From positions 10,031 to 74,030 of the forward strand of contig CAZPMS010000003.1 in NCBI GenBank assembly GCA_964588165.1: 64,000 bases of DNA, read 5' to 3'. Position 1 is the first letter of the stretch. Each line of letters begins with the position of its first letter. This stretch comes from an uncultured Gammaproteobacteria bacterium (GTDB lineage: Bacteria; Patescibacteriota; Patescibacteriia; UBA1558; UBA10009). Below are positions 2,901 through 56,450 of this stretch, piece by piece. Below the pieces are notes generated by a model that saw only the letters and a list, made by a program, of their open reading frames with translations, made no database searches and was not told where the DNA came from. The translations under genes were made by a program, and so were the position numbers.

Positions 2901-4067
2901 ATGAGAAAAAAAAGCTTGTCAGAAAAAATAAAAGATCTAATTGCTTATCCCTTGGGACATAAGTTTTATAATCATGGTCCCGATATTATTTTATTGGTAA
3001 CTTTGGGGCTGATAATTCTTTTTGGCCTAATGATGCTTTCTTCGGCCAGCTCTGTCCAAGCTTTCCAAAAATTCGGCGATAGTTATTATTTTTTCAAAAA
3101 TCAACTTTTAAAAGGTCTAATTCCGGGCCTGATTGCTTTTTATATTGCCTCCCGTATAGACTATAGAACTTGGAAAAAATATGCCTTTGTTATGCTGATA
3201 GTTTCTGTAGTTTTATTGATTTTGGTTTTTATACCAGGGTTTGGCGTAAGTTATGGCAAAGCCCAAAGCTGGCTTAAGATAGGGCCTATTGGTTTCCAAC
3301 CCACAGAAATTGTTAAGTTAACTTTTTTAGTTTATCTGGCTACTTGGCTAGAAAAAAGAGGGGAAAGGGGATTAAAAGACCCACAATACGGCTTATTGCC
3401 ATTTTTATTTGCTATGGGCGTAATTAGTTTTTTAATATTGGCCCAACCGGATATGGGCACTTTAATGATTATTATCGCCATTAGCTTTATAATTTATTTT
3501 ATTGCCGGCGCGCCTCCTAAATATATTCTTGGCATTACTGCCGGCGCTTTGGTTATTTTATTTATAGCTATTCAGGTGGCGCCTTACCGCCTGGCCAGAT
3601 TTACCACCTTTTTTAATGCAGATGCAGACCCACAAGGAGTTGGTTACCACATTAGCCAATCAAAGCTGGCTATCGGTTCTGGCGGCCTAATCGGCCTGGG
3701 CATTGGCAAATCACGCCAAAAATTCAATTACTTGCCAGAAGTTTATGGTGATTCTATTTTTGCCATTATTGCCGAAGAAATGGGTTTTGTTTTTTCCATA
3801 ATTTTAGTTTTATTATTCTTAACTTTTGCCATAAGGGGACTTAAAATAGGCCGGGCTTCTCCCGATATGTTCGCGAAACTACTGGCCATTGGCATAACCA
3901 GTTGGATAACTTTCCAAGCTTTCATTAATATTGGCGCCATGGTAGGCTTACTACCGTTAACAGGAATTCCTTTGCCATTTATAAGTTATGGCGGAACTTC
4001 GCTTACAATTTCTTTATTTGCGGTTGGTATTTTAATAAATATTTCCAAACAAACTAAAACTGTTTAA
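2901..4067 (+). CDS. ftsW: Peptidoglycan glycosyltransferase FtsW (SEDS family)
   Basis: About 10-TM SEDS protein with a conserved C-terminal block (PLPFISYGGTSL). dcw-cluster context. Confidence 0.85.
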   Translation: MRKKSLSEKIKDLIAYPLGHKFYNHGPDIILLVTLGLIILFGLMMLSSASSVQAFQKFGDSYYFFKNQLLKGLIPGLIAFYIASRIDYRTWKKYAFVMLIVSVVLLILVFIPGFGVSYGKAQSWLKIGPIGFQPTEIVKLTFLVYLATWLEKRGERGLKDPQYGLLPFLFAMGVISFLILAQPDMGTLMIIIAISFIIYFIAGAPPKYILGITAGALVILFIAIQVAPYRLARFTTFFNADADPQGVGYHISQSKLAIGSGGLIGLGIGKSRQKFNYLPEVYGDSIFAIIAEEMGFVFSIILVLLFLTFAIRGLKIGRASPDMFAKLLAIGITSWITFQAFINIGAMVGLLPLTGIPLPFISYGGTSLTISLFAVGILINISKQTKTV

Positions 4068-8167: not shown

Positions 8168-8237
8168 TTCTCCTCCAAGGGCTAGTTCACGTTCTCGGTA
8201 ATTTAAACCTAACTATTAATAAACAATTTGTCAATAT

Positions 8238-9191
8238 ATGCTAAATCCATTTAATAACCCAAAGGTTTTAGAAAACGAACCATTAAAAAACCATACTACT
8301 TTCCAAATTGGCGGTCCGGCCAAGTATTTTGTTGAATTATCTGAAACTGATGATTTAATCAATATCTTAAAAACTGCCAAAGATAATAAAATCTCTTATA
8401 TTTTTATTGGCGGCGGTAGTAATCTTTTGGTCAGCGACGACGGATTTGATGGCTTGGTAATAAAAATAAAGCCCTATAATATAAAAATTAACGGAACTGG
8501 AGTAGAAGTTGATGCAGGTTATCCTTTGGCCGGTTTAATAATGGAATGTCTAGACAACCAACTGACTGGCTTGGAATTTGCCGCCGGCGTACCCGGAACA
8601 GTTGGTGGTGCTATAAAAGGCAATGCTGGCACTTACGGTGAAGCTATGGATAAAGTAATTAAAGAAGTAACTTATCTTGATGAAAATTTAGAAGTTAAAA
8701 CTTTAAATAAAAAAGATTGTAGTTTTTCTTATAGGCACAGTATTTTTAAGGAAAATGAAAAATGGTTAATAATTTCAGCAATTTTGACGCTAGAAAAAGA
8801 TGGCAAAGAAGCTTCAAAAAAATTAATTGATGAAAGAATCCAAAAGCGGATGGATTCTCAGCCATATGGCCAACCTTCAGCCGGCTGTGCTTTTAAAAAT
8901 ATTATATACACTGATGAAATTGCCAAAAAAATGGAATCATTAGGCTGGGAACTTTCTGATAAATTCAAAAAATATAAAAAAATACCAGCAGCTTTTGTTA
9001 TTGAACAATTAGGTTTAAAAGGCAAAACAATTGGCAAGGCTCAAATCTCGGCCAAACATGCCAACTATATTGTAAATTTAGGTGGAGCAACCGCTGATGA
9101 TGTAGTCCAATTGATAAGTTATATTAAACAACAAGTAAGGGATAAAGTTGGCGTTCAGCTCCAGGAAGAAGTGAGGTATTTTGGTTTTTAA
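8238..9191 (+). CDS. murB: UDP-N-acetylenolpyruvoylglucosamine reductase
   Basis: FAD-binding N-terminus (FQIGGPAKYF), MurB C-terminal domain, dcw context. Confidence 0.85.
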   Translation: MLNPFNNPKVLENEPLKNHTTFQIGGPAKYFVELSETDDLINILKTAKDNKISYIFIGGGSNLLVSDDGFDGLVIKIKPYNIKINGTGVEVDAGYPLAGLIMECLDNQLTGLEFAAGVPGTVGGAIKGNAGTYGEAMDKVIKEVTYLDENLEVKTLNKKDCSFSYRHSIFKENEKWLIISAILTLEKDGKEASKKLIDERIQKRMDSQPYGQPSAGCAFKNIIYTDEIAKKMESLGWELSDKFKKYKKIPAAFVIEQLGLKGKTIGKAQISAKHANYIVNLGGATADDVVQLISYIKQQVRDKVGVQLQEEVRYFGF

Positions 9192-10514: not shown

Positions 10515-13280
10515 ATGGGTTTTTTAGACAAATTATTTGGAGACGGTAATGAAAAATACCTAAAAACCCTCCAACCTACAATAGATAAAATTAATTCACT
10601 CGAAAAGGATTTCGAGAGTTTTTCTAATGATGAATTAAAGTCAAAAACTAATGACTTAAAATTAATGGTTAAGGATGGGAAAAAATTAGATGATATTTTA
10701 CCGGAAGCTTTTGCTTTAACCAAAGAAGCTGCCAAGCGGACTTTAAACATGAAGCACTATGATGTCCAACTTTTAGGAGGCATTGTGTTGCACCAAGGCC
10801 AGATTGCCGAAATGAAAACCGGTGAAGGTAAAACTATAACTGCCACTCTGCCGATATTCTTAAATGCTTTAGCCGGCAAAGGCGCCCATTTAATTACGGT
10901 AAATGATTATTTAGCCAGAAGAGACTCCGTTTGGATGGGGCAAATTTATAATATGCTGGGATTAACCATAGGTTGTATCCAGCATGACAGTGCTTTTATT
11001 TATGATGTTAATTATAAAGCTACAGAAGAAGTTGAAGAAGAAAGAGATAGGGGAATAGTGGTTAATGAAAACTATTTAAGGCCGGTGAGCAGGAAAGAAG
11101 CCTACGAGGCAGATATTACTTATGGCACCAATAATGAATTTGGCTTTGATTATTTGCGCGATAATATGGTCCAATCTTTAGAACAAAAAGTCCAACGGGA
11201 TTTGAATTATTGTATTGTAGATGAAGTGGACTCAATTTTAATTGATGAAGCCAGAACTCCGCTTATTATTTCTGCTCCGGATATGGAATCAACCGATAAA
11301 TACTTCCAATTTGCCAAACTGGTAAAAACTTTAAAGGAAAATGAAGATTACAATATTGATGAGAAAATGAAAGCGGCTACATTAACTGATAAAGGTATTG
11401 AAAATATTGAAAAAGCCTTAGGCGTAGATAATATCTACCAATCCAAAGGCATTCAAACGGTTCATCATTTAGAATCAGCCCTAAGGGCCGAAACTTTATT
11501 CAAAAAAGATAAGGATTACGTGGTAAAAGAAGGTGAAGTTATTATTGTTGATGAATTTACCGGCCGCATGATGTACGGCCGAAGATATTCCGAGGGCCTC
11601 CACCAAGCAATTGAGGCCAAAGAAGGTGTTAAGGTCCAACGTGAATCCAGGACTATGGCCACTATTACTTTCCAAAATTATTTTAGGCTTTATGAAAAAT
11701 TGGCCGGCATGACAGGTACGGCCGCCACCGAATCGGAAGAATTTTCTAAAATTTATAACCTGGAAGTAACAGTAGTACCTACTAATAAGCCAAATATCAG
11801 GAAAGATTTGAATGATTTAATTTACAAAAATGAAATAGCCAAATATAAGGCTGTTATTGAAGAAATTAAAAAAAGAAAGGCAGCTGGCCAGCCGGTTTTG
11901 GTTGGTACTATTTCCATTGAAAAAAATGAACTCCTGGCACAGCTTTTAGAGCAAGGCGGTGTTGAATATAATGCTTTAAATGCAAAAAACCACGCTAAAG
12001 AAGCGGAAATTATCGCCCAGGCCGGTAAAAAAGGTTCTGTTACCCTGGCCACTAACATGGCCGGCAGGGGAGTTGATATTATATTAGGCGGCAACCCAAC
12101 TGACGATAAAGAAGCAGAAGATATTAAAGCTTTGGGCGGTTTGCACGTGATTGGTACAGAAAGGCATGAATCCAGAAGAATTGATAACCAGTTAAGAGGT
12201 AGGTCCGGCAGGCAAGGGGATCCGGGATCAACCCAGTTTTTTGTCTGCATGGATGATGATTTAATGAGAATTTTCGGTTCCGATAGGATGAAAAACATTA
12301 TGACCACTCTAAAAGTTCCGGAAGATATGCCCATTGAAAATAAATTAATTACTAAATCTTTAGAATCAGCCCAAAAAAAAGTGGAAGGCAATAATTTTGA
12401 TATTAGGAAACATCTGGTTGAATATGATGATGTTATCAGCAAGCAACGGGAGGTAATTTATAAAAAAAGAAATCAAGTCTTAAAGCTTTCAGCCGGAGAA
12501 CAAACTGATGAATATAAATCTACCAAGGAAATGGTTTTGGAAATGCTAGCCGAAGAAATTACAAATCTGGTAAATTTCCATGCTGTTTCTGAAAATAATT
12601 CCGGCATTAACTATAAAGAGATTACAGAAACTATTGGCGCTATGTTCCCGCTGGATGATGAGATAAAAGAAAAAATTAACCAAGAAAAAACTCAGGAAAG
12701 TTTAACTGACTATTTAGTTAACTTAACTAAAGATAAATACCAACAGGTAGAAACAGATGTGGCTGGCATGCAGGAACTCCAAGGTGAAGCTGATCCTTTA
12801 AGAAACGTGGAAAAATCTTTAATCCTAAATACCATTGATACTTTTTGGGTGGAACATTTAGAAAATATTGACCATTTAAGAACCGGTATTGGCTTAAGAG
12901 GTTATGGCCAGCGTGATCCTTTAATTGAATTTAAAAAAGAATCATACCAACTGTTCCAATCATTGCTTTCGGCCGTCCAAAACCAGGTTATTTCTACTAT
13001 TTTTAAAATTGGCAAAGCAGCCCAAGTTACTCTTTCACCAATTGCTACTGCCAATATGAAATTCAGCGGTGCCGCTAAAACTGCTATTGATAATAGAAGC
13101 AGCATCCAGAGAATGGCCCAAAATACCAACCAGCCTCAAAAACCAGCTCCTGCTAAAAAACTTGAATCAAAACCTAAAGATGAATCTGGCAAAAAAGTTG
13201 GCCGGAATGATCCATGCCCCTGTGGAGCGGTTAAATCGAACGGCACTCCAAAAAAGTATAAGCATTGCCATGGAAAGTAG
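10515..13280 (+). CDS. secA: Preprotein translocase ATPase SecA
   Basis: 921 aa with DEAD-like motor motifs (MKTGEGKT, DEVDSILIDEARTPLIIS) and a C-terminal zinc finger CPCG...KYKHCHGK. The last 18 codons appear to be element-derived (see findings). Confidence 0.95.
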   Translation: MGFLDKLFGDGNEKYLKTLQPTIDKINSLEKDFESFSNDELKSKTNDLKLMVKDGKKLDDILPEAFALTKEAAKRTLNMKHYDVQLLGGIVLHQGQIAEMKTGEGKTITATLPIFLNALAGKGAHLITVNDYLARRDSVWMGQIYNMLGLTIGCIQHDSAFIYDVNYKATEEVEEERDRGIVVNENYLRPVSRKEAYEADITYGTNNEFGFDYLRDNMVQSLEQKVQRDLNYCIVDEVDSILIDEARTPLIISAPDMESTDKYFQFAKLVKTLKENEDYNIDEKMKAATLTDKGIENIEKALGVDNIYQSKGIQTVHHLESALRAETLFKKDKDYVVKEGEVIIVDEFTGRMMYGRRYSEGLHQAIEAKEGVKVQRESRTMATITFQNYFRLYEKLAGMTGTAATESEEFSKIYNLEVTVVPTNKPNIRKDLNDLIYKNEIAKYKAVIEEIKKRKAAGQPVLVGTISIEKNELLAQLLEQGGVEYNALNAKNHAKEAEIIAQAGKKGSVTLATNMAGRGVDIILGGNPTDDKEAEDIKALGGLHVIGTERHESRRIDNQLRGRSGRQGDPGSTQFFVCMDDDLMRIFGSDRMKNIMTTLKVPEDMPIENKLITKSLESAQKKVEGNNFDIRKHLVEYDDVISKQREVIYKKRNQVLKLSAGEQTDEYKSTKEMVLEMLAEEITNLVNFHAVSENNSGINYKEITETIGAMFPLDDEIKEKINQEKTQESLTDYLVNLTKDKYQQVETDVAGMQELQGEADPLRNVEKSLILNTIDTFWVEHLENIDHLRTGIGLRGYGQRDPLIEFKKESYQLFQSLLSAVQNQVISTIFKIGKAAQVTLSPIATANMKFSGAAKTAIDNRSSIQRMAQNTNQPQKPAPAKKLESKPKDESGKKVGRNDPCPCGAVKSNGTPKKYKHCHGK

Positions 13281-13442
13281 TCTCTACATTATAATTACTT
13301 AGTATTAGCTAAGTTTAAATTAAGTTCATATATAACACGGTGTATACGAAAAAACAGCTCACTTCTTGAGCTATTTTCTGCAAATTTGACTTATTTTTCT
13401 ATTATCAGTATTATATAAATATACTAATATATTTATATTACT

Positions 13443-13661
13443 ATGCGTAAAATAGATTTAAAAAATGTAATCTGGAAAGAAGGCAAATATTACGTGGCAC
13501 AATGTCTTAATGTTGATGTGTCTAGTTTTGGTAAAACAAAAAAAGAAGCTCTAGCTAATTTAGATGAGGCATTAGAGTTATATTTTGAAGATGTACAAAT
13601 ATCCAAGGTTACCAAAGTAGAAAGACCAGAGGTGGTAAGGCTATCCCTACGCTATGCCTAA
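13443..13661 (+). CDS. hicB: HicB-family antitoxin (UPF0150-like)
   Basis: 72 aa with the pattern KEGKYYVAQC...GKTKKEALANLDEALELYFE, typical of HicB N-domains. Overlaps the downstream hicA by 8 nt. Confidence 0.7.
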   Translation: MRKIDLKNVIWKEGKYYVAQCLNVDVSSFGKTKKEALANLDEALELYFEDVQISKVTKVERPEVVRLSLRYA

Positions 13662-13872
13662 ACTTTATTCATCTAGTAAAATTATCAAAGTCCTATTATC
13701 TAAGGGCTTTATTTTTATATCCCAAAAAGGCTCTCATGCCAAATATCGCAAATTCAATAGACTAGTTTTAACGGTTATTGTGCCTATTGGTAAAAAAGAA
13801 ATTCCAATAGGAACTTTTAAATCTATTTTACGCCAAGCAAATTTAATAGAAGAAGATTTCAAGAAAAAATAA
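13654..13872 (+). CDS. hicA: HicA-family mRNA interferase toxin
   Basis: 72 aa with KIIKVLLSKGF...QKGSHAKY...IPIGTFKSILRQANL, the HicA/YcfA consensus. Confidence 0.75.
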   Translation: MPKLYSSSKIIKVLLSKGFIFISQKGSHAKYRKFNRLVLTVIVPIGKKEIPIGTFKSILRQANLIEEDFKKK

Positions 13873-13926
13873 GTCAAAATTCGCATCCGCACACAAGTTA
13901 TATGAAATAATTAAATTTTTAGAACA

Positions 13927-14190
13927 AAAAAACACCTAGGCCAATAATGACAGCCTAGGTGCTACGAATAAGCTTACCTTGCAGCTCTGAGCTGGGTGCG
14001 ATACAGTCTCCAGCTAGTATTGTTACTTCTCCCAGTTGGCCTGCTTCTTCTAAAGAAAAAAGGAAGAAAGCTTAAGGTAGTTATTTGATACCAGCCTGGG
14101 CACATCATGTTCGCGTAAGACAGCAGAGGTCAGAAGGTGCTAGCTAGCATTTTGCTTATCCGGTTTTGATCCCTTTGTATAAAAAAACTT
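13927..14190 (-). ncRNA. Putative sRNA of about 264 nt, GC-rich relative to the host, convergent with hicBA
   Basis: On the - strand, TTGACA (complement of 14222-14227), a 17-bp spacer, then TATATT (complement of 14199-14204). It ends at an intrinsic terminator: hairpin cacctaggc/gcctaggtg at 13934-13962 followed by a U-run (plus-strand A-run 13927-13933). There is no convincing ORF (best is 47 aa without an RBS). Confidence 0.4.
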
Positions 14191-14374
14191 AAATACTAAT
14201 ATATAATATATTTAATATTTTGTCAATAGTAAGTAATAGCTCAATCAAAACAAAATTAAAAAAATTAAATAAGAAAAACCGCCGAGTTGTGTAACTAGGC
14301 GGTTTTGTGATACCTCAACACTCATCATTTTTTTCTTCTTAGAGAATCTATTCTAACTGCACTACCGAATCTCT

Positions 14375-14452
14375 CGGAATGATCCATGCCCATGCGGAGC
14401 GATTAAAGATGATGGAACTCCAAAAAAATACAAACATTGTCACGGAAAATAA
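14375..14452 (+). pseudogene. Displaced 3'-terminal fragment of secA (zinc-finger tail [25 protein letters not shown]), an attR-like remnant
   Basis: 17 nt identical to secA 13203-13219 (cggaatgatccatgccc), then synonymous-diverged codons for the same C-terminal peptide, ending in TAA. There is an in-frame stop immediately upstream, so it is not a complete gene. Confidence 0.65.
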
Positions 14453-14631
14453 TTCTTTTTTAAAAAAATCCTGTATCCACCATAATAAAGTGATGAAAAC
14501 AGGATTTAATGATTGTAATTATAGCCAAGTGCCTGAAGGACTAACTGGTCCTTAGGTTGGCTTGTAGCCAGCGATCCAAAAGCCGGAATCCCAATAGTAA
14601 CCGAAGATAATTCTCGCTCTGGGCTTACCGC

Positions 14632-15003
14632 TTAAATTATCGAATCGCGCGTTACACCAGTACCCATCTCTATTCTTCCAGTGGGTCCCGTTGGGGAATT
14701 CCTCGGCGAAAATCGGTTTTGTTCATTAAGCGTAGCTAGTGTAAAAGGATCAACAACACGCAGGCCACGTTCTTCACAATAAATGTCAACTTCTTCGTCA
14801 GTGGTCATACCAGATTTTAGTTCGAACAAGAAAACATCGATTTCCCCGCCACTACCCCTCGGCATTTGTTCAATCAACCTATGGCCAATAATCTCTCGGC
14901 CAGTACCCTCTAGCACATTCAATGAAGTACGGCTACAATCCACACTGACACGACAGACTATCATGTCGCCATGGTCGCTCTGGATAAATTTAAAAGACAT
15001 GGT
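14632..15003 (-). CDS. Hypothetical protein (island cassette gene 1); probable start MSFKF at 15003
   Basis: RBS agaaaggataatacc before the ATG at 15003. The first 17 residues of the tracked ORF are read-through of the shared repeat. GC-rich. A terminator hairpin and U-run lie downstream at 14465-14510, so the gene may be frameshifted or longer. Confidence 0.45.
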   Translation of the reverse strand, partial: TMSFKFIQSDHGDMIVCRVSVDCSRTSLNVLEGTGREIIGHRLIEQMPRGSGGEIDVFLFELKSGMTTDEEVDIYCEERGLRVVDPFTLATLNEQNRFSPRNSPTGPTGRIEMGTGVTRDSII

Positions 15004-15021
15004 ATTATCCTTTCTTGTTGT

Positions 15022-15140
15022 TGAATGAATTGTACGAATAATAAAGCACTGCATCAGATTCCAGCTATATTGTCAATAATCTATATAAAATAAAAAACCA
15101 CCTTAAGCTATGTCGAAAGGCGGTTTTGTAATAACCAAAA
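15022..15140. repeat. Direct repeat copy 1: promoter, 5' UTR and terminator module of the island cassettes
   Basis: About 119 bp, near-identical to 16161-16280. Contains an upstream terminator (aaaaaaccacc...ggcggtttt) and a leftward TTGACA promoter. Confidence 0.8.
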
Positions 15141-15148
15141 TTAGCTAT

Positions 15149-15400
15149 TTAAGTAAACAATAAGATGCCGGCGATTAGTATGCCAATGATTGGGATGCCA
15201 AATAGAATTATGCGTGTACGAAGTTTTTGCCTGGCTATCAATACGCTTCTACCTGCCTTACCTTGCCTCTGGCACTTATAGCATACACCGTCTTTATGAT
15301 GGATTGTATACCATCTTTCGCCACAATGGATGCAATCTTCCATCTCATCCCTTGATCCTTCAGCCAGTTCGGCCATTAAGTCACCTGTATGGTCGCCCAT
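15149..15400 (-). CDS. Small zinc-ribbon protein with a C-terminal TM helix (island cassette gene)
   Basis: CIHCG...CYKCQ double CxxC plus a hydrophobic tail. - strand promoter TTGACA-17-TATTAT (complement of about 15445-15473). Confidence 0.5.
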   Translation of the reverse strand: MGDHTGDLMAELAEGSRDEMEDCIHCGERWYTIHHKDGVCYKCQRQGKAGRSVLIARQKLRTRIILFGIPIIGILIAGILLFT

Positions 15401-15622
15401 AATCTACCTATGTTTGTTGGATTTAAAAAAACGTTAACATCGAATAATAACATAAACAAATAAACTTGTCAATAATCTATTTAAAATTAATTCATTGGAA
15501 AGCTTAAATAATTACGATAACGATTTAAGAATATATAAAATCCCTTAAAAAATTTATCATAAATAAAAGCGTAAATCATGTAGACTTACGCTTGTAATTC
15601 AGAAACTTTCTAAATTTTCTAC

Positions 15623-16126
15623 TCATTGATCCTGATAAAAGCCGATCCAAAATACACCGCCTAGTACAAAAAATAATACGTACAAAACTAGGAAAAGCCA
15701 TTGGTACGGAAAAATAACAATTTTGGTTGGCTTAATAACATGAGAGCTTTCATCAACTAAGACTTCTCGAATCTTCATTAAAGCAATGCCTTGTTCTGAT
15801 TGCGTTACAGTTAATGAATCAATTTTAAAACGTCTTATGATTGTTGATGTGGTTTGTTTGGCTCCCTGAATTTGTGAATACCAAATAGCAACATCATTAC
15901 TAGGTCGAAAGAAGGCAAAAGCAGAGTGACCACTAGTCAAGCCTCTCTCTTCGATTTTCAGAAGAGCATTGTTAAGAAACTCATCAGCGCGCTCTATGCT
16001 CGGAGCCTCAGCTGCTAACTTAAGCCAATCGCCGATATCACGATCAAAGGTGTAGTCAAGAATGCAGTGGTAAACACTAAGGCCCAGAAAGAAAAGAGTA
16101 AAAGCTATGGCAATAAACTGTTTCAT
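15623..16126 (-). CDS. Hypothetical membrane protein (island cassette gene 2); start MKQF at 16126
   Basis: N-terminal and C-terminal TM segments. The upstream residues of the tracked ORF are encoded by the repeat (GTG start). Uses the shared promoter/UTR module. Confidence 0.5.
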   Translation of the reverse strand: MKQFIAIAFTLFFLGLSVYHCILDYTFDRDIGDWLKLAAEAPSIERADEFLNNALLKIEERGLTSGHSAFAFFRPSNDVAIWYSQIQGAKQTTSTIIRRFKIDSLTVTQSEQGIALMKIREVLVDESSHVIKPTKIVIFPYQWLFLVLYVLFFVLGGVFWIGFYQDQ

Positions 16127-16160
16127 CTCTAAATCCTTTCGCCCTATTAAGAGCTTTTCT

Positions 16161-16280
16161 TTGAATGAATTGTACGAATAATAAAGCACTGTATCAGATT
16201 CCAGCTATATTGTCAATAATCTATATAAAATAAAAAACCACCTTAAGCTATGTCGAAAGGCGGTTTTGTAATACCTCAAT
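16161..16280. repeat. Direct repeat copy 2 of the promoter/UTR/terminator module
   Basis: Near-identical to 15022-15140 (1-2 mismatches). A third, partial and diverged copy lies at 16583-16650. Confidence 0.8.
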
Positions 16281-16304
16281 TCATTGCTTTCTCTTATTGG
16301 TGAT

Positions 16305-16577
16305 TTAATTAGAATCTATTCTAACTGCAACACCGAATTTCTCGGAGTGATGCATAATTAGATCACCAACTGCTTTATATGGAACCTTGCCAGCTGCCCA
16401 AATTCCAGGCTTTCCCTCAATGCATGCATGATAGTCAGCTGTTCTTTTTGTGACAACGATAACTATGGTCTTTTCTTTGGGCCGCCCGCTAAGGTATATG
16501 AAGAAAAAAAGTACCCAAGCCAACAAAGCGCCAACCCCGCCAACAATAATGTAGGTTACCAGGTCTTCCATGACCAT
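16305..16577 (-). CDS. Small membrane protein (island cassette gene 3); start MVMEDL at 16577 with a ggag RBS
   Basis: One TM helix. The C-terminal codons are supplied by the element-end/att-like repeat (16311-16355). Confidence 0.4.
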   Translation of the reverse strand: MVMEDLVTYIIVGGVGALLAWVLFFFIYLSGRPKEKTIVIVVTKRTADYHACIEGKPGIWAAGKVPYKAVGDLIMHHSEKFGVAVRIDSN

Positions 16578-16726
16578 CTCCGAAGTTGAATGAATTGTGC
16601 GAATAATAAAGCACAATATCATATTCTAGTCATATTGTCAATAGTAGTACAAAAAAACATTAAACAAAACACCCATACAAAAGCTTGCATTTTTTTAGTA
16701 ATTACTCTAAAATAGTACGCAAGATT

Positions 16727-39686: not shown

Positions 39687-40724
39687 TCAGGCTTTTTTCA
39701 ATGGCAGCTTAAATTTGCACTTAACACACTTGCCATTTTCATCATGTAAAGTTATTTGATAGCCTAATCTCTTTATTACCAGCTCATTGCATTTAGGGCA
39801 AAAACTATTTTCCCTCTTATCACCATAAACATTCCCCACATAAATATAATTTAATCCCGCTTGCTTGCCAATTTGATAAACCTGATCAATTAGCTTATCA
39901 GAAGTTTCTTGGCCATCGTGCAATTTGTAAGAAATTTCCGGAGAGAATTTAGAAATATGCCAAGGTACATCATTAGATAGTTTCCGGCTGATAAATTCAG
40001 CAATCATTTTCGGCTGGCCATTAATATCAGTTAATCCGGGAATTAGCAAAGTAGTTACCTCCAGTAATACATTTTGCCGGCTTAAATATTTCAAATTTTC
40101 CAAAATCGGTTCCAGTTTACAGCCACAATTTTTTAAATATATTATATTATCAAAAAATTTCAAATCAATATTAATGGCATCAAGATAGGGGAGAATAGCT
40201 TTAAAAGCAATCTGGCTCATGTAGCCATTAGAAACCCATACATTAAACAAACCTTCTTGTTTTGCCAGCTTCATGCAATTTAGGGCAAAGTCGGTAAAAA
40301 TTGTCGGCTCGGTGTAAGTGTATGAGATCGACTGACATCCAAAATCAACTGCTCTTTTAACAACTTCTTCAGCTGTCACTTTATAGCCAGGCAAGCTTGT
40401 CCCCCTTCCCTTATCCCTTGTCCCTAACTTAGATCCTTGGCTTATTTGCCAATTCTGGCAGTTGTCACATCTTAAGTTACAGCCGATAGTGGCAATGGAA
40501 TAAGTTTTGCTGCCGGGTAAAAAATGGAAAATCGGCTTTTTCTCAATTGGATCCACCTCCTCAGTGATCAGACGGCCATAATTCAAACTCATTAGTTTAC
40601 CGTTAATATTTTGCCTAACTCCGCAAATACCTAAATCACCGTCACCTAACAGGCAATAATGATTGCATAAAAGGCATTTAACTTGCCGGGTGCCTTTTTT
40701 TTCATAAAATTGGGATTCTATCAT
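39687..40724 (-). CDS. AmmeMemoRadiSam-system radical SAM enzyme (AmrS-like)
   Basis: N-terminal CLLCNHYC and a radical-SAM cluster CNLRCDNCQNWQIS, characteristic of AmrS/pyruvate-formate-lyase-activase-like enzymes. Confidence 0.7.
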   Translation of the reverse strand: MIESQFYEKKGTRQVKCLLCNHYCLLGDGDLGICGVRQNINGKLMSLNYGRLITEEVDPIEKKPIFHFLPGSKTYSIATIGCNLRCDNCQNWQISQGSKLGTRDKGRGTSLPGYKVTAEEVVKRAVDFGCQSISYTYTEPTIFTDFALNCMKLAKQEGLFNVWVSNGYMSQIAFKAILPYLDAINIDLKFFDNIIYLKNCGCKLEPILENLKYLSRQNVLLEVTTLLIPGLTDINGQPKMIAEFISRKLSNDVPWHISKFSPEISYKLHDGQETSDKLIDQVYQIGKQAGLNYIYVGNVYGDKRENSFCPKCNELVIKRLGYQITLHDENGKCVKCKFKLPLKKA

Positions 40725-43011: not shown

Positions 43012-44457
43012 ATGACTAAAATTAAAACCAGATTTGCGCCTTCACCAACCGGTTACTTGCATATCGGCGGTTTAAGGACAGCTTTATATAATTACCTTTT
43101 TGCCAAACAAAATAAAGGCCAATTTGTTTTAAGAATAGAAGATACTGACCAGTCCAGGGAGGTAAAAGGAGCTACCCAAGATCTGATTCAAACCATGCAA
43201 AAAACCGGCCTAAATTGGGACGAAGGTCCATTTGTGAATAAAACCCTGAATATCACGGAAAAAGGCCAAAATAGCCCATATTTTCAGTCAAAAAGGCTTA
43301 AAATCTACCAAGAATATGCTGAGATGCTGGTTTCTGATAAAAAGGCTTATTATTGCTATTGCAGTCCGGAAAGATTGGTCAAGTTACGCAAGGATCAGGA
43401 GGCTAAAAAACTGGCTCCCAAATATGATGGCTGTTGCCGAGATAAAAATCAAAAACCAAAATCTGGCGATAAATATGTTATCAGGCTTAAAGTTCCTAAG
43501 GATGGGGAAGTAGTTTGTGATGATTTAATCAGGGGCAAAGTTAAAATTGACTACAGTGAAATTGACGACCAGGTTTTAATAAAATCTGACGGTTTTCCAA
43601 CTTACCATTTAGCTAATGTTATTGACGACCATTTAATGGGCATTACCCACGTTATCAGGGGAGAGGAATGGCTGCCTTCTACACCTAAGCATATTTTATT
43701 GTATGAAGCTTTTGGCTGGGACAAACCGATTTTTGCCCATCTGCCGCTTTTATTAAATAAAGATAAATCCAAACTTTCTAAACGCCAAGGTGATGTGGCA
43801 GTGGAAGATTATTTAACTAAAGGTTATCTGCCGGAGGCTTTGATAAATTATGTGGCCCTGCTTGGCTGGCATCCTAAAGATGATAGGGAATTATTTAGCT
43901 TAAAAGATTTGATAAAACATTTTTCTTTAAATAAAGTCCAAAAAGGTGGAGCCATTTTTGATACTGAAAAACTAAATTGGTTTAATTGCGAATATATTAA
44001 ACAAAAACCTGATAAAGAATTAATAAAATTGGTTAAAAAATTTCTACCTAATGCTGATGATAACTTTTTGGGAAAAATTATCAGAATTGAAAAACAACGT
44101 ATTAATTCTTTGTCAGAAATTTGTGAGAAAACCAGATACTTTTTTTCACAACCAAACTTTAACTCAAATATTCTAATATTTAAAAAATCAGATAAAGCCA
44201 AGACTTTAAATAGTTTAAAACTGGTTTTAGCTCAACTGACCAAGTTAAAAGAAGCCAAATGGAAAATAAAACATCTTCATAAAATTTTAGAAAAGATAGT
44301 AAAGCTTAACCAACTGACTAACGGCGATGTTTTTTGGCCTACAAGAGTAGCCGTTTCCGGATTGGAAAAGTCACCTTCACCGGAAGAAATCATAGAGGCC
44401 TTAGGCAAAGAAGAAAGCTTAACCAGAATAAAAAAAGCTATTGATAAACTGACATAG
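43012..44457 (+). CDS. gltX: Glutamyl-tRNA synthetase
   Basis: Class I HIGH (PTGYLHIGG) and KMSKS-like (KLSKR) motifs. Confidence 0.9.
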   Translation: MTKIKTRFAPSPTGYLHIGGLRTALYNYLFAKQNKGQFVLRIEDTDQSREVKGATQDLIQTMQKTGLNWDEGPFVNKTLNITEKGQNSPYFQSKRLKIYQEYAEMLVSDKKAYYCYCSPERLVKLRKDQEAKKLAPKYDGCCRDKNQKPKSGDKYVIRLKVPKDGEVVCDDLIRGKVKIDYSEIDDQVLIKSDGFPTYHLANVIDDHLMGITHVIRGEEWLPSTPKHILLYEAFGWDKPIFAHLPLLLNKDKSKLSKRQGDVAVEDYLTKGYLPEALINYVALLGWHPKDDRELFSLKDLIKHFSLNKVQKGGAIFDTEKLNWFNCEYIKQKPDKELIKLVKKFLPNADDNFLGKIIRIEKQRINSLSEICEKTRYFFSQPNFNSNILIFKKSDKAKTLNSLKLVLAQLTKLKEAKWKIKHLHKILEKIVKLNQLTNGDVFWPTRVAVSGLEKSPSPEEIIEALGKEESLTRIKKAIDKLT

Positions 44458-44766: not shown

Positions 44767-44852
44767 CGGAGTTTTTATTTATATTGACAAAATTCTTAAT
44801 ATTTTATAGAATAAATTGATTTGTTCATCTGATTAACAGGAGGACCAAAGCC
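44767..44852 (+). promoter_or_regulatory. Promoter/leader module A (TTGACA, TATAGAAT, shared leader, AGGAGG)
   Basis: Near-identical to 45112-45187, including the first codons ATG ACA. Confidence 0.6.
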
Positions 44853-45080
44853 ATGACAAGCAATAACTACCCGTGCGTTGGTAAAGTTGTTGCTGAAACA
44901 GGTCTACACATTCAAAATCAACCAAAATCTAAAAGGCAAGGGCAGGCCACTAATCATCCAATGATTACTACTACAGAAAAGGAGAAAAAAAATCATGATT
45001 TTGGCTGTTTTTTAGTTTATCTGCTGCATGACCGCCCGGATCATTGGCCAGGACACCAACCTTCATTCAGTAAAAAATAA
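44853..45080 (+). CDS. Small hydrophilic hypothetical protein (75 aa)
   Basis: Driven by module A. Followed by terminator actccggtt...aactggagt plus a T-run. Confidence 0.4.
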   Translation: MTSNNYPCVGKVVAETGLHIQNQPKSKRQGQATNHPMITTTEKEKKNHDFGCFLVYLLHDRPDHWPGHQPSFSKK

Positions 45081-45111
45081 TAGACTCCGGTTAGTATTAA
45101 TAACTGGAGTT

Positions 45112-45187
45112 TTTTATATTGACAAAAGCTTGCATATTTTATAGGATAAATTGATTTGTTCATCAGATTAACAGGAGCACCAAAACC
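45112..45187 (+). promoter_or_regulatory. Promoter/leader module B (duplicate of module A)
   Basis: tattgacaaaagcttgcatattttataggataaattgatttgttcatcagattaacaggagcacc, about 90% identical to module A. Confidence 0.6.
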
Positions 45188-45537: not shown

Positions 45538-46797
45538 ATGAGAAATAAATTTCAAAAAATTAGCCTAACAATTTTGGCTCTATTTATAGCAGTCAATTTT
45601 TTGTTACCCGCGTCACTATTGGCTCAAGACGGGCAGGGGAGTACTGATGAATTTGTCCAGCAGTTTGATCCGGAAATCCAAAGGTTAAAGGACGAAATCC
45701 AGGATTACCAAGACCAGCTGGATGAATTAACTAAACAACGCCAAGCTTACGAGCACAGCATTAATGCCAAACGGCAAGAAATAAATAACTTAAGGAACCA
45801 AGTTGGCATTTTAGAAGATAGCATGGCTAAATACGCCTTGGAAATTCAATCTACAGAATTACAGATAGAAAAAACCAATTTGGAAATAGAAAACACCCAG
45901 TTGGAAATAAACCATAAAGAGCAAGAAATTGTAAATCAGCGCCAAAAAATGTCCGACGTGATAAATACTATCAATAAAATGGATAGGAAGAAAAGTTATT
46001 TGGAAGTATTAATTTTAAAAGGTGATTTAGGCAGTTTTTTTAAGGAAGTAAATGAACTTCAGGTATTAGAAGAAAGCTTAAATGAAGATTTAAATATTTT
46101 AGCCGAACTAAAAAAACAGTTAGATACTAAAAAAAATATTTTTGAAAAAAGGCGTGATCAATTAAACAGCCTTAAAGATAAGCTGGAAGCCAATAATGAA
46201 CGCTTAGTAATAGATAGAAATGTTAAAAATCAAATTGTTGCACAAACATTGGGACAAGAGGCAAATTTTCAACAGCTTTTGGAAGAAGTGAAAGCCGAGC
46301 AATCCCAAATAAATGCTGATATCCAAAATTTAGAAATAGTAGCCCGAAAAAGGCTTTTAGAAACCGAGGGGGTTTTACCCAATGATGACGGTTTTATCTG
46401 GCCTATTCCTTCCAGAAGAGTCACAGCTTATTTTCATGATCCGGATTATCCTTACCGTTACATTTTTGAACACCCGGCCATTGATATAGGTAGTACGCCG
46501 CAAGGCACGCCCATTAGGGCAGCACGTTCCGGTTATGTAGCTAGAGTAAAATTTGATGGAAGTTCTAAGTATGGCTATATTTTAGTGGTTCATACAGATG
46601 GGCTTTCTACTGTTTATGGCCATATAAGTAAACCATATATAAATGAAGATGATTTCGTGGTCCAGGGCGAAGTAATAGCTTTATCCGGTGGCAGTCCAGG
46701 AACTTCAGGTGCTGGCAGTTTAACTACAGGTGCTCATTTACATTTCGAAGTAAGATTAAATGGTATTCCAGTTGACCCGTTAAACTATTTGCCTTAA
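45538..46797 (+). CDS. M23/LytM-family peptidoglycan endopeptidase with an N-terminal coiled coil (EnvC-like)
   Basis: Signal/TM, a long coiled-coil region, and a C-terminal HxxxD...GxHLHFE LytM domain. Confidence 0.8.
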   Translation: MRNKFQKISLTILALFIAVNFLLPASLLAQDGQGSTDEFVQQFDPEIQRLKDEIQDYQDQLDELTKQRQAYEHSINAKRQEINNLRNQVGILEDSMAKYALEIQSTELQIEKTNLEIENTQLEINHKEQEIVNQRQKMSDVINTINKMDRKKSYLEVLILKGDLGSFFKEVNELQVLEESLNEDLNILAELKKQLDTKKNIFEKRRDQLNSLKDKLEANNERLVIDRNVKNQIVAQTLGQEANFQQLLEEVKAEQSQINADIQNLEIVARKRLLETEGVLPNDDGFIWPIPSRRVTAYFHDPDYPYRYIFEHPAIDIGSTPQGTPIRAARSGYVARVKFDGSSKYGYILVVHTDGLSTVYGHISKPYINEDDFVVQGEVIALSGGSPGTSGAGSLTTGAHLHFEVRLNGIPVDPLNYLP

Positions 46798-53437: not shown

Positions 53438-55351
53438 CTAATTAAATAATTTAAAGTCTTTGGTTAATTTTTTAACTGAATCAATCTTGCCATAAACCAG
53501 AGCACCTAAATATTCAACTTCTTCATGTTTTTTTTGTGAAGTTATTTTGGCAATTTTTTTATCATCAGTGGTTTCTAACATTTCTCTGGTGAACTCTGCA
53601 ATCTCCAATTCCTTTTCTTTAGCTTTGTTAATTAGTTTTAAAATATCTTTGTTGGATTTTGCCTCTTTTATCATTATGGCATGCTGAATATTGAGTTTAA
53701 TTTCATCATTATCTTTTGTAAAAATTGAATCTTGTTGCAATAAATCTTTACCTTCTCTGGCGCCAAAAGCTGCAGTTAAATGAGCCACTGTATTCATTTC
53801 TTCCCAATCCTCTAAATCTAATTCTTTATTTACAAGAATCACCGCCATCATGGTTTCTTTAGATTTGCCTGCTTTACTAACTTTTTGGCCTTCTGGTTTT
53901 AGGGTTGGGAACAAAATTACTTCTTTAATATTGTGTGTGTTTGTAAGAATATTAACCAGCCTATCAATCCCCATGCCAAGTCCGGCTGTTGGCGGCATGC
54001 CATATTTTAAGGCTTCTATAAATTCATCGTCCTTACCCATGGCTTCTTCATCACCTTTGGCCGTTAAGCTCTGTTGGAACTTAAACCTTTCTTCTTGGTC
54101 TATTGGATCATTAAGTTCAGAAAAAGCGTTCATTAGTTCAATTTTGCCCCCAACAATAAGTTGGAAACGTTCTACATAATTTTCTCGGCCGACAATTTTT
54201 TTTGCCAGTGGTGAAAGCTCTATTGGATGATTAATTATATAAGTTGGGTTTATCATATTAGTCCGGACAAACTTCTTAAATAATTCATCAGCTATTTTAC
54301 CTTTGCCCCAAAACTCTTCTACTCTTAAACCTTTTTTCTTAGCTTCTTTAGTTAATGATTTGGCATCATGCTTATCTAAATCAATCTTTGCTTCTTTAAG
54401 CAAAGCTTCTCTAAAATCCAATCTGGGATACGGCCCTTTGAAATCAATTTTATGTCCGTCGTACTCCACTTTGGTTTTACCGACTACGTTTTTTACCAAC
54501 GCCGGCATAAACTTTTCCATAAACTTCATTAAGCCTTCATAATCCTGGTAAGCCCAATAAAATTCTATTTGGCTAAACTCCGGATTATGGGCATAATCAA
54601 CCCCTTCATTCCTAAAACATCTGGCAATTTCAAAAACCTTTTCGTAACCGCCAACAATTAATTCTTTTAAATACAGTTCCGGCGCAATCCTTAAATACAT
54701 ATCCGTATCCAAAGCATTATGATGGGTTTTAAACGGCTTTGCTATAGCCCCAGAAGCCACTTGCTGCAAAATTGGCGTATCAACCTCTATAAAACCTTCT
54801 TTAATGAAATAATCTCTAATAAATTGGATTAACTTGCTTCTTACGCTGAAAATATTTTTTACTTCCGGGTTTGAAATAAGGTCTAAATATCTTTTTCTGA
54901 ATCTGGTTTCTACATCAGAAAGGCCGTGCCATTTTTCTGGCAATGGCAAAATTGACTTTGTTAACATTTTAAAGTTTTTTACTAAAACTGACTTCTCTCC
55001 CCTCTTGGTGGTAAAAGGGCTGCCGGTTATTTCTATAAAATCACCAACATCAAATGAATTTTTGAAGAATCTGTAATCTTTATCGCCCACTTCATCTTTT
55101 TTAAAGTAAGCCTGGATTTTGCCCGATTCGTCTTCTAAATTCACAAAACACGAACCACCATGCAACCTGATTGACCTTAGCCGGCCAACAATGGTGAATT
55201 TCTTCAATTTTTTAAAATCAGCCAAAACCTGGCCAATTTGATGAGTTCTTTTTACTTCTTTGGGATAAGGATTAATACCATTTTTTTTGATTGTTTTCAG
55301 ACGATTTAACCTAATTTTGTTTTCATCTGAATAGTTTATTTTTTCCGTCAT
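53438..55351 (-). CDS. lysS: Lysyl-tRNA synthetase (class II) with a C-terminal extension of about 140 aa
   Basis: OB-fold anticodon domain, class II motifs (FRNEG, GMGIDRL). 637 aa against a typical length of about 500. Confidence 0.85.
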   Translation of the reverse strand: MTEKINYSDENKIRLNRLKTIKKNGINPYPKEVKRTHQIGQVLADFKKLKKFTIVGRLRSIRLHGGSCFVNLEDESGKIQAYFKKDEVGDKDYRFFKNSFDVGDFIEITGSPFTTKRGEKSVLVKNFKMLTKSILPLPEKWHGLSDVETRFRKRYLDLISNPEVKNIFSVRSKLIQFIRDYFIKEGFIEVDTPILQQVASGAIAKPFKTHHNALDTDMYLRIAPELYLKELIVGGYEKVFEIARCFRNEGVDYAHNPEFSQIEFYWAYQDYEGLMKFMEKFMPALVKNVVGKTKVEYDGHKIDFKGPYPRLDFREALLKEAKIDLDKHDAKSLTKEAKKKGLRVEEFWGKGKIADELFKKFVRTNMINPTYIINHPIELSPLAKKIVGRENYVERFQLIVGGKIELMNAFSELNDPIDQEERFKFQQSLTAKGDEEAMGKDDEFIEALKYGMPPTAGLGMGIDRLVNILTNTHNIKEVILFPTLKPEGQKVSKAGKSKETMMAVILVNKELDLEDWEEMNTVAHLTAAFGAREGKDLLQQDSIFTKDNDEIKLNIQHAIMIKEAKSNKDILKLINKAKEKELEIAEFTREMLETTDDKKIAKITSQKKHEEVEYLGALVYGKIDSVKKLTKDFKLFN

Positions 55352-55453
55352 AATAGAAAAATTATAGCTAAAAATTGATTATTTTACAATAGGTTATTGA
55401 ATTGTCCACAAATAGTGTTTGACAAAAATAAGATGATGTTTTAAACTTTAGAT

Positions 55454-55553
55454 TCTCCTCTCTCCATGTTCGCATGGAGTTCCGCGCCCGCCCGGTCTTC
55501 GGACCGGGCTCCTACAACAACAGGTTCAGAAACACATCTCTGAACCTTTTTTC
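55454..55553 (+). ncRNA. Putative sRNA unit 1
   Basis: TTGACA (55419-55424), 17-bp spacer, TAAACT. Two UUCG-capped hairpins (ctccatgTTCGcatggag, cccggtcTTCGgaccggg). Terminator ggttcagaaacacatctctgaacc plus U7. Confidence 0.4.
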
Positions 55554-55628
55554 TTTGTTTTAAAAAATTGCTAATTAATACCTTTGGGATGCCTTGACAA
55601 AAACTATAGATTAATATATAGTAATTTT

Positions 55629-55756
55629 TGCCTCCTGTTTATCTTTGTCTTCACCCAAGCATGAGGCATCTTCACTATATGTGAAGGAAAACTTGCCGGT
55701 CACTTACATCAGTAAGTGACGGAAAGGCTCAGAAGCGCAACTCTGGGCCTTTTTCT
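55629..55756 (+). ncRNA. Putative sRNA unit 2
   Basis: TTGACA (55594-55599), 17-bp spacer, TATAGT. Hairpin cacttacATCAGtaagtg. Terminator ggctcagaagcgcaactctgggcc plus a U-run. Confidence 0.4.
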
Positions 55757-55824
55757 TTGGTAAAAAAAATATAGAGCCATTAAGCTATCTTGACAAAAAT
55801 AAGCATTAATGTATAATGTTTTTG

Positions 55825-55947
55825 TCTCTTAATCAATCTCCACCCGATTTTGAGACGCCTCCCCAATTCGACCTGGGGAACTAACTGAGTCGCTTTCATC
55901 AGAAAGTGGCGAAAAGGTTCAGAAACACATCTCTGAACCTTTTTTTA
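55825..55947 (+). ncRNA. Putative sRNA unit 3
   Basis: TTGACA (55790-55795), 16-bp spacer, TATAAT. Hairpin gctttcATCAGaaagtg. Terminator identical to unit 1. Confidence 0.4.
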
Positions 55948-55988
55948 TCCACTTGTTGCAATTTTACTTTTCAAGATATAATTAAACT

Positions 55989-56152
55989 AATCATAGGAGA
56001 TTTTAATAACATTCGGTGAACCCACTCCCTTTTAGTTTTGTCAGACTGACCACCCCTTATTGAGCCTTCGGGGTTGACAATTCATACGCATACCGGGTAC
56101 ACCGAAACAATCAAAACGAGCCTGGCACTTTCCCCGTCAGGCTCTTATATTT
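55989..56152 (+). ncRNA. Putative sRNA unit 4
   Basis: TTGCAA, about 15-bp spacer, TATAAT. Terminator gagcctggcactttccccgtcaggctc. No ORF. Confidence 0.3.
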
Positions 56153-56184
56153 GACAACAATATTAAATCTTTTATAATAAAAAT

Positions 56185-56450
56185 ACCCTGGAATCATGTG
56201 CCAGGTTTAGTGCGAGTTTGGTAGGCTTGCGCTATCGCGCCTGGGTTGTTATCTGGCGGATTGAGTACCGTCAAATAACTTGCTGGTTGTGGGACCAACA
56301 AACCCGTGCGTGAACTCCCTCACTGCCCGTCAGCGTCCTGTTGACGGGAGCAAACAACTTACTTCTAATACACATCAACTTCAACCAAGGAGATTACTGA
56401 AGGTTTCCATATCATCTACAAAAGCTTAACATCAGTTAAGCTTTTTATTT
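56185..56450 (+). ncRNA. Putative sRNA unit 5 (about 265 nt)
   Basis: TTGACA (56151-56156), 16-bp spacer, TATAAT (56173-56178). Terminator aaaagcttaacATCAGttaagctttt plus a U-run. GC-rich, structured, no ORF. Confidence 0.4.

Follow-up and report, generated by a model that had tools for sequence, protein, structure and literature searches.

A minus-strand unit of about 265 nt, running from promoter to terminator in a 64-kb stretch of Patescibacteria DNA (hereafter the window, meaning the whole 64,000 nucleotides that were analysed), is best read, with a probability that we put at roughly 0.4, as a probably transcribed non-coding unit of one Patescibacteria population, whose only visible pairing partner would be the read-through RNA of the convergent hicBA toxin-antitoxin module. 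This tentative reading draws on the unit's promoter and terminator, on its base composition and lack of a coding frame, on its recovery from separate assemblies and on the way in which hicBA ends; it is weighed below against a decayed coding cassette, a small RNA with targets elsewhere, a small-protein gene, an RNA of an integrative element and a divergent member of a known RNA family. To our knowledge, the regulatory RNAs of Patescibacteria, or the Candidate Phyla Radiation (CPR), have hardly been studied, and our search of the literature on non-coding RNAs of this group found nothing usable. If it is expressed, the unit adds one strain-specific non-coding transcript to the group.

Results

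Promoter, terminator and extent of the unit

The signals that bound the unit, and the body between them, are the following:

14221..14226, minus strand: -35 hexamer TTGACA (sequence and promoter scan)
14198..14203, minus strand: -10 hexamer TATATT, behind a 17-bp spacer (sequence and promoter scan)
13964..14191, minus strand: predicted transcript body of about 228 nt, 43-45% GC, with no whole-body coding signal and a fold stability within that of shuffles
13933..13961, minus strand: terminator hairpin whose perfect 9-bp arms can be lengthened to 11-13 pairs (terminator and repeat scans)
13926..13932, minus strand: U7 tract of the terminator (sequence)

An initial annotation of this DNA had described a perfect TTGACA, a 17-bp spacer and TATATT on the minus strand, and we find these elements at 14226..14198 (TTGACA at 14226..14221, TATATT at 14203..14198), where they match the consensus at 11 of 12 positions. 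Sites that match at least 11 of 12 positions occur ten times in the window, against 2.75 ± 1.6 times in dinucleotide shuffles (maximum 7 in 60), a 3.6-fold enrichment, and six of the ten fall in intergenic DNA, which makes up 15% of the window; both the enrichment and the concentration argue for a transcribed unit. Other promoters of this class head short terminated units at 55.4-56.4 kb and at 44.8-45.1 kb, so the promoter type does drive small units here. The unit at 44784-45116 (plus strand) has an 11/12 promoter and a canonical terminator enclosing a 75-aa ORF (44853-45080) with an AGGAGG Shine-Dalgarno sequence, and is a small-protein gene. Around the -35 hexamer of the minus-strand unit, the stretch TACTATTGACAA resembles the promoter of the 105-aa cassette gene further along (14201-14231 vs 16616-16646, 74% identity).

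The intrinsic terminator, for which a 9-bp GC-rich stem and a U7 tract had been claimed, is equally clear. Its arms, CACCTAGGC and GCCTAGGTG, lie at 13961-13953 and 13941-13933 and pair perfectly over 9 bp, the stem can be extended to 11-13 pairs, and a T7 run follows directly at 13932-13926. In a scan of the 64-kb window it was the strongest of ten canonical terminators, and it is specific to the minus strand, since the same hairpin read on the plus strand runs into CTACGAATAAGC and has no U tract. With transcription starting near 14190-14194 and ending with the U tract, the predicted RNA would measure about 262-268 nt, in agreement with the unit of roughly 264 nt, convergent with hicBA, that was first proposed. 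The 3′ end had also been said to abut the hicA stop, which is wrong: the stop codon ends at 13872, and 53 nt separate it from the last U at 13926.

The body contains 42.7% GC over the span that was folded (13966-14192) and 44.9% over its core (13964-14170), the latter being above the 34.8% of the window as a whole, the 35.2% of coding sequence and the 22-27% of the adjoining spacers; hicB has 34% and hicA 28%, and the neighbouring island ORFs have 38-44%. The statement that the unit is far more GC-rich than its surroundings therefore holds against the spacers and fails against the adjacent island ORFs. The contrast with hicBA and the spacers speaks for the preferred reading; however, the elevated GC could also be inherited from a former coding cassette.

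Coding potential

The unit is probably not coding. As had been noted from the letters alone, it holds no credible ORF: the longest has 44 aa (14108..13974), a phmmer search with this ORF against 1.84 billion representative proteins returned repeat-protein artefacts only, and a Pfam search of the six-frame peptides returned nothing relevant. We scored codon likelihood with a model trained on the genes of the window, under which 95% of non-coding frames score below 0.22 and 99% below 0.44. Over the whole body the six frames score between -0.15 and -0.79, compared with 0.41 ± 0.14 for genes and 0.15-0.27 for the island ORFans, which supports the non-coding reading.

A small-protein gene, made either from the 44-aa ORF or from a 59-codon frame that begins at the ATG at 14150-14148 and has a single in-frame TGA read through, is accordingly given a very slim chance. 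One frame is indeed open for about 70 codons apart from one TGA, and the missing Shine-Dalgarno sequence, which is normal in this genome, is uninformative because most genes here lack one. However, TGA serves as a stop in 4 of the 48 genes of the window, only one frame scores worse over the whole body than that of the 44-aa ORF (-0.649), the database matches are those artefacts with nothing from Pfam beside them, and the ATG is not in a leaderless position. Most genes of the window have no Shine-Dalgarno sequence and many carry a TATAAT 6-8 nt ahead of the ATG (for example 39687-40724, 43012-44457, 45538-46797 and 53438-55351), a pattern that suggests that leaderless mRNAs are widespread in this genome.

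The 3′ third of the body (14071-13958) behaves somewhat differently, in that it is open for 38 codons, has no start codon, and ends at a TAG (13957-13955) inside the terminator stem. Its codon scores of 0.27-0.48 are not significant after allowing for about 18 windows, and one T added to the T6 run at 14061-14056 would join its frame to the frame upstream. This weak hint keeps alive the reading of the unit as an inert relic of a small coding cassette (an ORF of 83-188 aa) that was broken by indels, with promoter and terminator surviving by chance and the transcript functionless. Such a relic is somewhat unlikely in itself, and nearly as likely as the non-coding unit that we prefer. Besides the negative whole-body scores in all six frames, the lack of homologues for the real or reconstructed peptides speaks against it: none was found in Pfam, among the 1.84 billion proteins (searched with the 44-aa ORF only), or, by tblastn with the reconstructed peptides, in the loci examined, in phages or in plasmids. 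This absence is weak evidence, because the island ORFs are ORFans themselves.

Fold stability

Two structural elements were predicted within the body:

14154..14162, minus strand: 5′ arm CGGAUAAGC of a predicted closing helix, with its partner GCUUAUUCG at 13965-13973 (single-sequence prediction)
14043..14071, minus strand: predicted hairpin GCUUUCUUCC-UUUUUUCUUUA-GAAGAAGC with a U/C-rich loop, including the T6 run at 14061-14056 (fold prediction)

Beyond its terminator, the unit has no detectable structure. The 227-nt body folds with z = -0.04 when the terminator is removed, and 93 of 200 shuffles fold equally well or better; the complement of the body gives z = +1.04. The whole unit reaches z = -1.5 to -1.8, entirely because of the terminator. 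The 9-bp closing helix, which would join 14162-14154 to 13973-13965, encloses 199 nt with z = -1.2. The initial annotation had implied a structured RNA, and the body does not bear this out. A body with no fold signal is what a decayed cassette would have, and for the preferred non-coding reading it is an objection.

Four ORF-less promoter-to-terminator units at 55.42-56.35 kb served as an internal control and give z from -3.8 to -6.4; three of them, with their bodies folded separately, give z from -2.7 to -4.7. Given this gap, the unit beside hicBA is unlike the good sRNA candidates of its own genome, among which the body's -0.04 stands against a range of -2.7 to -6.4. The control units lie in a 1080-nt intergenic region (55421-56352, plus strand), three of them behind 11/12 or 12/12 promoters, and they are GC-rich (44-55%) as well as strongly structured. 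Two have the identical terminator GGTTCAGAAACACATCTCTGAACC followed by a T run, three start with C-rich CUCC/CCUCC stretches, and none has an Rfam match. They are far better sRNA candidates than the unit described here.

Known RNA families

The initial annotation had failed to match the unit to tmRNA, RNase P, SRP or 6S RNA by conserved motifs, and profile searches lead to the same result. Rfam 15 at the gathering score gave no match anywhere in the window, and an 801-nt query (13700-14500) searched at E ≤ 10, the covariance check that had been suggested at the outset, gave no family match that covers the body. The sole Rfam match that touches the unit is L20_leader at 13861-13981, over the terminator, with 15.2 bits against a gathering score of 58.7. 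ARAGORN found neither a tRNA nor a tmRNA gene in the window; the 64 kb hold no tRNA gene at all.

Several classes were considered and rejected. Covariance-model matches are absent for the Rfam 15 families as a whole (tmRNA, RNase P, SRP, 6S, riboswitches, group I and II introns, HEARO, OLE and raiA), and tmRNA is additionally excluded by ARAGORN across the window. A type III toxin-antitoxin RNA antitoxin, a TIGR array or a CRISPR-like array would require repeats, and TRF and repeat scans found no tandem or interspaced array within 13920-14235. 6S or another structured housekeeping RNA is at odds with the z values of the body and of the helix-enclosed 199 nt, and with the unit's absence from the related genomes searched. 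Downstream on the minus strand lies the antisense of hicA, and, as no same-strand gene follows that could be regulated, a riboswitch or attenuator leader is ruled out. Guide RNAs of mobile elements (IS110 bridge RNA, TnpB/IscB omega RNA, retron msr-msd) were rejected since no recombinase, nuclease or reverse transcriptase adjoins the unit: the neighbouring ORFs are HicB, HicA and four ORFans, none with a Pfam, PADLOC or PHROG match of that kind. PADLOC matched none of the seven proteins queried, and matches in PHROGs were confined to HicA (toxin) and HicB (families of unknown function), with none for the island ORFs.

That a known structured family (6S, SRP RNA, RNase P RNA, tmRNA or a riboswitch leader) is represented here by a highly divergent copy is hardly credible on these results. 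The size of the unit and its GC richness in an AT-rich genome would fit, and the predicted 9-bp helix would link the 5′ and 3′ ends of the body; but the Rfam and ARAGORN searches were negative, the body folds no better than its shuffles, and the unit sits in a recent insertion that is missing from the closest relatives (SecA 75-78% identical), which is the wrong place for a housekeeping RNA.

The mosaic island between secA and secD

The unit is located between secA and secD, the latter starting at about 16685, and three features of this region record an insertion:

13203..13279, plus strand: current secA 3′ end and left-hand member of a 77-nt duplication (sequence comparison)
14375..14451, plus strand: displaced secA 3′ end, 81% identical and with an intact frame, at the right edge of a 1.17-kb insertion (sequence comparison)
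14264..14387, minus strand: terminator of the cassette type (14264-14318), together with the final ~15 codons of a 105-aa-like gene (14343-14387), directly upstream of the RNA promoter (sequence comparison)

The last 77 nt of secA (13203-13279) are thus repeated at 14375-14451, with the identity of the two copies setting in exactly at CGGAATGATCCATGCCC and lasting to the stop codon. L178, the closest relative for which the neighbourhood is available, has a secA-secD gap of only about 1 kb with two unrelated small ORFs; the displaced copy matches the secA end of this relative (blastn, 80.8% over 78 nt, E = 4e-15), and the tail now in use has no match there at E ≤ 1e-3. The duplication, together with this match to the displaced copy, indicates that the 1.17 kb between the copies were inserted together with a secA tail of their own. 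Besides hicBA and the RNA unit, this insertion holds the cassette-type terminator and the end of the 105-aa-like gene. The gene fragment and the displaced secA copy share 13 nt, an overlap that looks like a microhomology junction, and the insertion as a whole could have arisen either through site-specific integration at the secA tail or through illegitimate recombination, aided by homology, with DNA of a related strain. A search with the 105-aa island protein, made for the donor lineage of the insertion, matched only the protein itself.

Displaced secA tails are also seen directly downstream of secA in two other Patescibacteria contigs. L178 carries one (8218-8253, GSGKKYKKCYG*) 45 nt past its real stop, and another locus, L118 (~3040-3195), has a 42-nt exact direct repeat of the secA tail around a 60-nt GC-rich insert; the secA tail, which encodes the SEC-C zinc finger, may be a recurrent integration or recombination site in Patescibacteria. 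Because the insertion with hicBA and the RNA is bounded by two secA tails and displaced tails recur in those two loci, the unit might be imagined as a functional RNA of a small integrative element that targets the secA 3′ end. We regard this as highly improbable; if true, the RNA might act in maintenance, site choice or regulation of the element and would belong to a class undescribed in Patescibacteria. Two assemblies of the same species as the window (L082 2878-5627 and L084 2855-5627) show secA split into an ORF of 672 or 666 aa and another of 249 aa, in place of a single ORF of 921 aa; this could be a frameshift variant or an assembly error.

Beyond the displaced tail, a 17-bp inverted repeat (14466-14507) with a T run on the minus strand is likely to terminate a 140-aa gene and was probably the hairpin that originally terminated secA; the 3′ UTR of the 140-aa gene (14508-14631, 125 nt) is GC-rich. 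An array of four small ORFan genes (about 90-188 aa, including the 83-aa and 188-aa genes) follows on the minus strand at 14632-16646. Its genes share promoter and 5′ UTR modules (15014-15133, 16154-16273, 16585-16643) and terminator modules, one of them inside the insertion (14264-14318, 15085-15139, 16225-16279), and in some population variants (L082, L086) the 83-aa and 188-aa genes have been lost through a 1140-bp deletion between repeats.

The order of parts supports the decayed-cassette reading. The unit shares strand, architecture and GC range with the neighbouring ORFan cassettes and has a related promoter context, and it stands directly downstream of a truncated 105-aa-like gene and its terminator exactly as the 188-aa gene stands downstream of the intact 105-aa gene. 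Against this, for an ORF to be scrambled between a perfect terminator and an 11/12 promoter that is still intact, the decay would have to be very recent.

Relation to hicBA

Convergent with the unit lies the following module:

13381..13908, plus strand: hicB-hicA module, separately mobile, with the RNA outside it (homology to other loci)

HicA (PF07927, E = 3e-16) and HicB (DUF7387) form an overlapping pair. The module of 528 bp (13381-13908) has 84-86% DNA identity to two loci, L092 and L091, in which it stands in other contexts, and in both the homology stops at 13908, 18 nt short of the U tract of the RNA. In the three loci with the most similar HicA (86, 85 and 81% identity), the module is followed by different neighbours, no gap like this one occurs, and the RNA is absent. 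Complementarity of the RNA to hicBA, or to any other part of the 64-kb window, did not exceed shuffle level in a short-word blastn search, which was used with shuffles after RNAduplex on 80-nt tiles had given meaningless long duplexes. From the end of homology at 13908, the different neighbours of the relatives and the absent complementarity it follows that the RNA is not an evolved partner of hicBA. The initial annotation had suggested, as one option, an antisense or regulatory RNA of the toxin-antitoxin module, and a dedicated link of this kind finds no support: hicBA is self-contained, its relatives do without the RNA, and no pairing stands out from the shuffles.

The module has conserved inverted repeats of its own, with arms at 13382-13398/13865-13881 and 13445-13463/13815-13833 (compared with L092 1055-1578). 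In the 19-nt repeat, which is perfect, codons 2-7 of hicB are matched to the 3′ part of hicA; the 17-nt repeat takes in the promoter -35 and the hicA stop. Both could form a long-range structure in the mRNA, or else be terminal repeats.

The unit does not overlap the hicBA coding region, and its own terminator halts the RNA before hicA. In the opposite direction, no terminator-like site was seen on the plus strand from the hicA stop up to a hairpin at about 14277-14310, which is the cassette terminator and the first on that strand to be followed by a U run. The module in L092 has its own plus-strand terminator right after the module end, and the copy in the window has none. As no plus-strand U-tract terminator precedes ~14277-14310, read-through of hicBA past the unit is plausible, and the preferred reading of a non-coding unit takes its only visible partner from this. 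The absence of the RNA from the closest hicBA modules counts against it, as does target complementarity at shuffle level within the 64 kb.

A further reading, which we consider rather unlikely, makes the unit an island-borne trans-acting sRNA that base-pairs with mRNA targets elsewhere in the genome, for example through the unpaired U/C-rich stretch 14070-14052. It has the usual build of a bacterial sRNA, with a promoter to itself and, at the 3′ end, a Rho-independent terminator that includes a U tract, and it has a pyrimidine-rich predicted loop. However, its best complementarity in the 64-kb window is at chance (61 of 100 shuffles equal the top score), and so is an 18-nt match to the cassette terminators (15092-15109 and 16232-16249). 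A mode of action through the anti-Shine-Dalgarno sequence is unlikely, as most genes lack the Shine-Dalgarno sequence and are seemingly leaderless; and the RNA would be unusually long and unstructured beside the units at 55.4-56.4 kb, with no conservation to recommend it.

Conservation and homologues

Nine contigs of the same species, from independent assemblies (JGI, ENA and Logan), carry the unit and are 100% identical across a 3.6-kb region. The unit is therefore real and not an assembly artefact, and, for the same reason, there is no variation to analyse for covariation. The host is an AT-rich member of the Patescibacteria (34.8% GC) whose SecA (10515-13280) is at most 64% identical to those of GTDB species representatives, all of them Patescibacteria MAGs, and 75-78% identical to the two closest metagenomic proteins.

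Homologues of the unit were sought in about 170 loci of other Patescibacteria and in phages, plasmids and viral contigs. None was found by nhmmer and blastn in 80 GTDB SecA loci, in 80 metagenome loci with a SecA C-terminus (among the matches listed, at most 50% identity), in three loci with HicA homologues or in the two closest relatives by SecA (75-78% identity), nor did blastn find one in phages or plasmids; viral contigs, scanned four times for shared k-mers, yielded chance 17-mers only. Conservation in homologues, which the initial annotation had named as a touchstone, is thus missing as far as the databases searched reach, and with neither homologue nor sequence variation the non-coding reading has no evidence of selection behind it.

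Discussion

We propose that the unit fills one "cassette slot" in the mosaic, recombination-prone island between secA and secD. It would be transcribed, and its action, if any, would be by base pairing and not as a folded ribonucleoprotein RNA. The hicBA module may have landed here without a plus-strand terminator of its own, in which case the hicBA mRNA would run antisense through the whole unit and could pair with it over about 265 nt, while the terminator of the unit would keep minus-strand transcription out of hicA. This antisense arrangement looks accidental and not like an evolved toxin-antitoxin regulator. The unit is at most a strain-specific small RNA, and as a candidate it is an unremarkable orphan borne by an island.

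The present evidence on the unit, with neither family, structure, conservation nor target, teaches little, and the surroundings are more informative than the RNA. Insertions apparently recur at the secA 3′ end, ORFan cassettes form a fast-changing array between secA and secD, and hicBA moves as a compact 528-bp module.

Comparison with known systems

Among known systems, the unit comes closest in build to orphan, strain-specific sRNA genes of genomic islands, with which it shares a free-standing, ORF-less layout from promoter to terminator (sigma-70, Rho-independent), a place in horizontally acquired variable DNA, and a 3′ stem-loop with a U tract; it differs in being longer and far less structured than typical sRNAs. 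It resembles 6S RNA in its comparable size range, strong promoter and relative GC richness, but lacks the Rfam match, the stable rod-like fold and the conservation in relatives. It also differs from the antisense RNAs of type I toxin-antitoxin systems, which overlap or pair with the toxin mRNA itself. Convergent cis-antisense RNAs of 3′ untranslated regions offer the nearest parallel for its arrangement, since the unit is convergent with hicBA and would be fully complementary to its mRNA if hicBA reads through; here, however, the overlap would fall only in the untranslated tail of hicBA and not in coding sequence, and related hicBA modules that do without the RNA indicate that the two are not a conserved regulatory pair.
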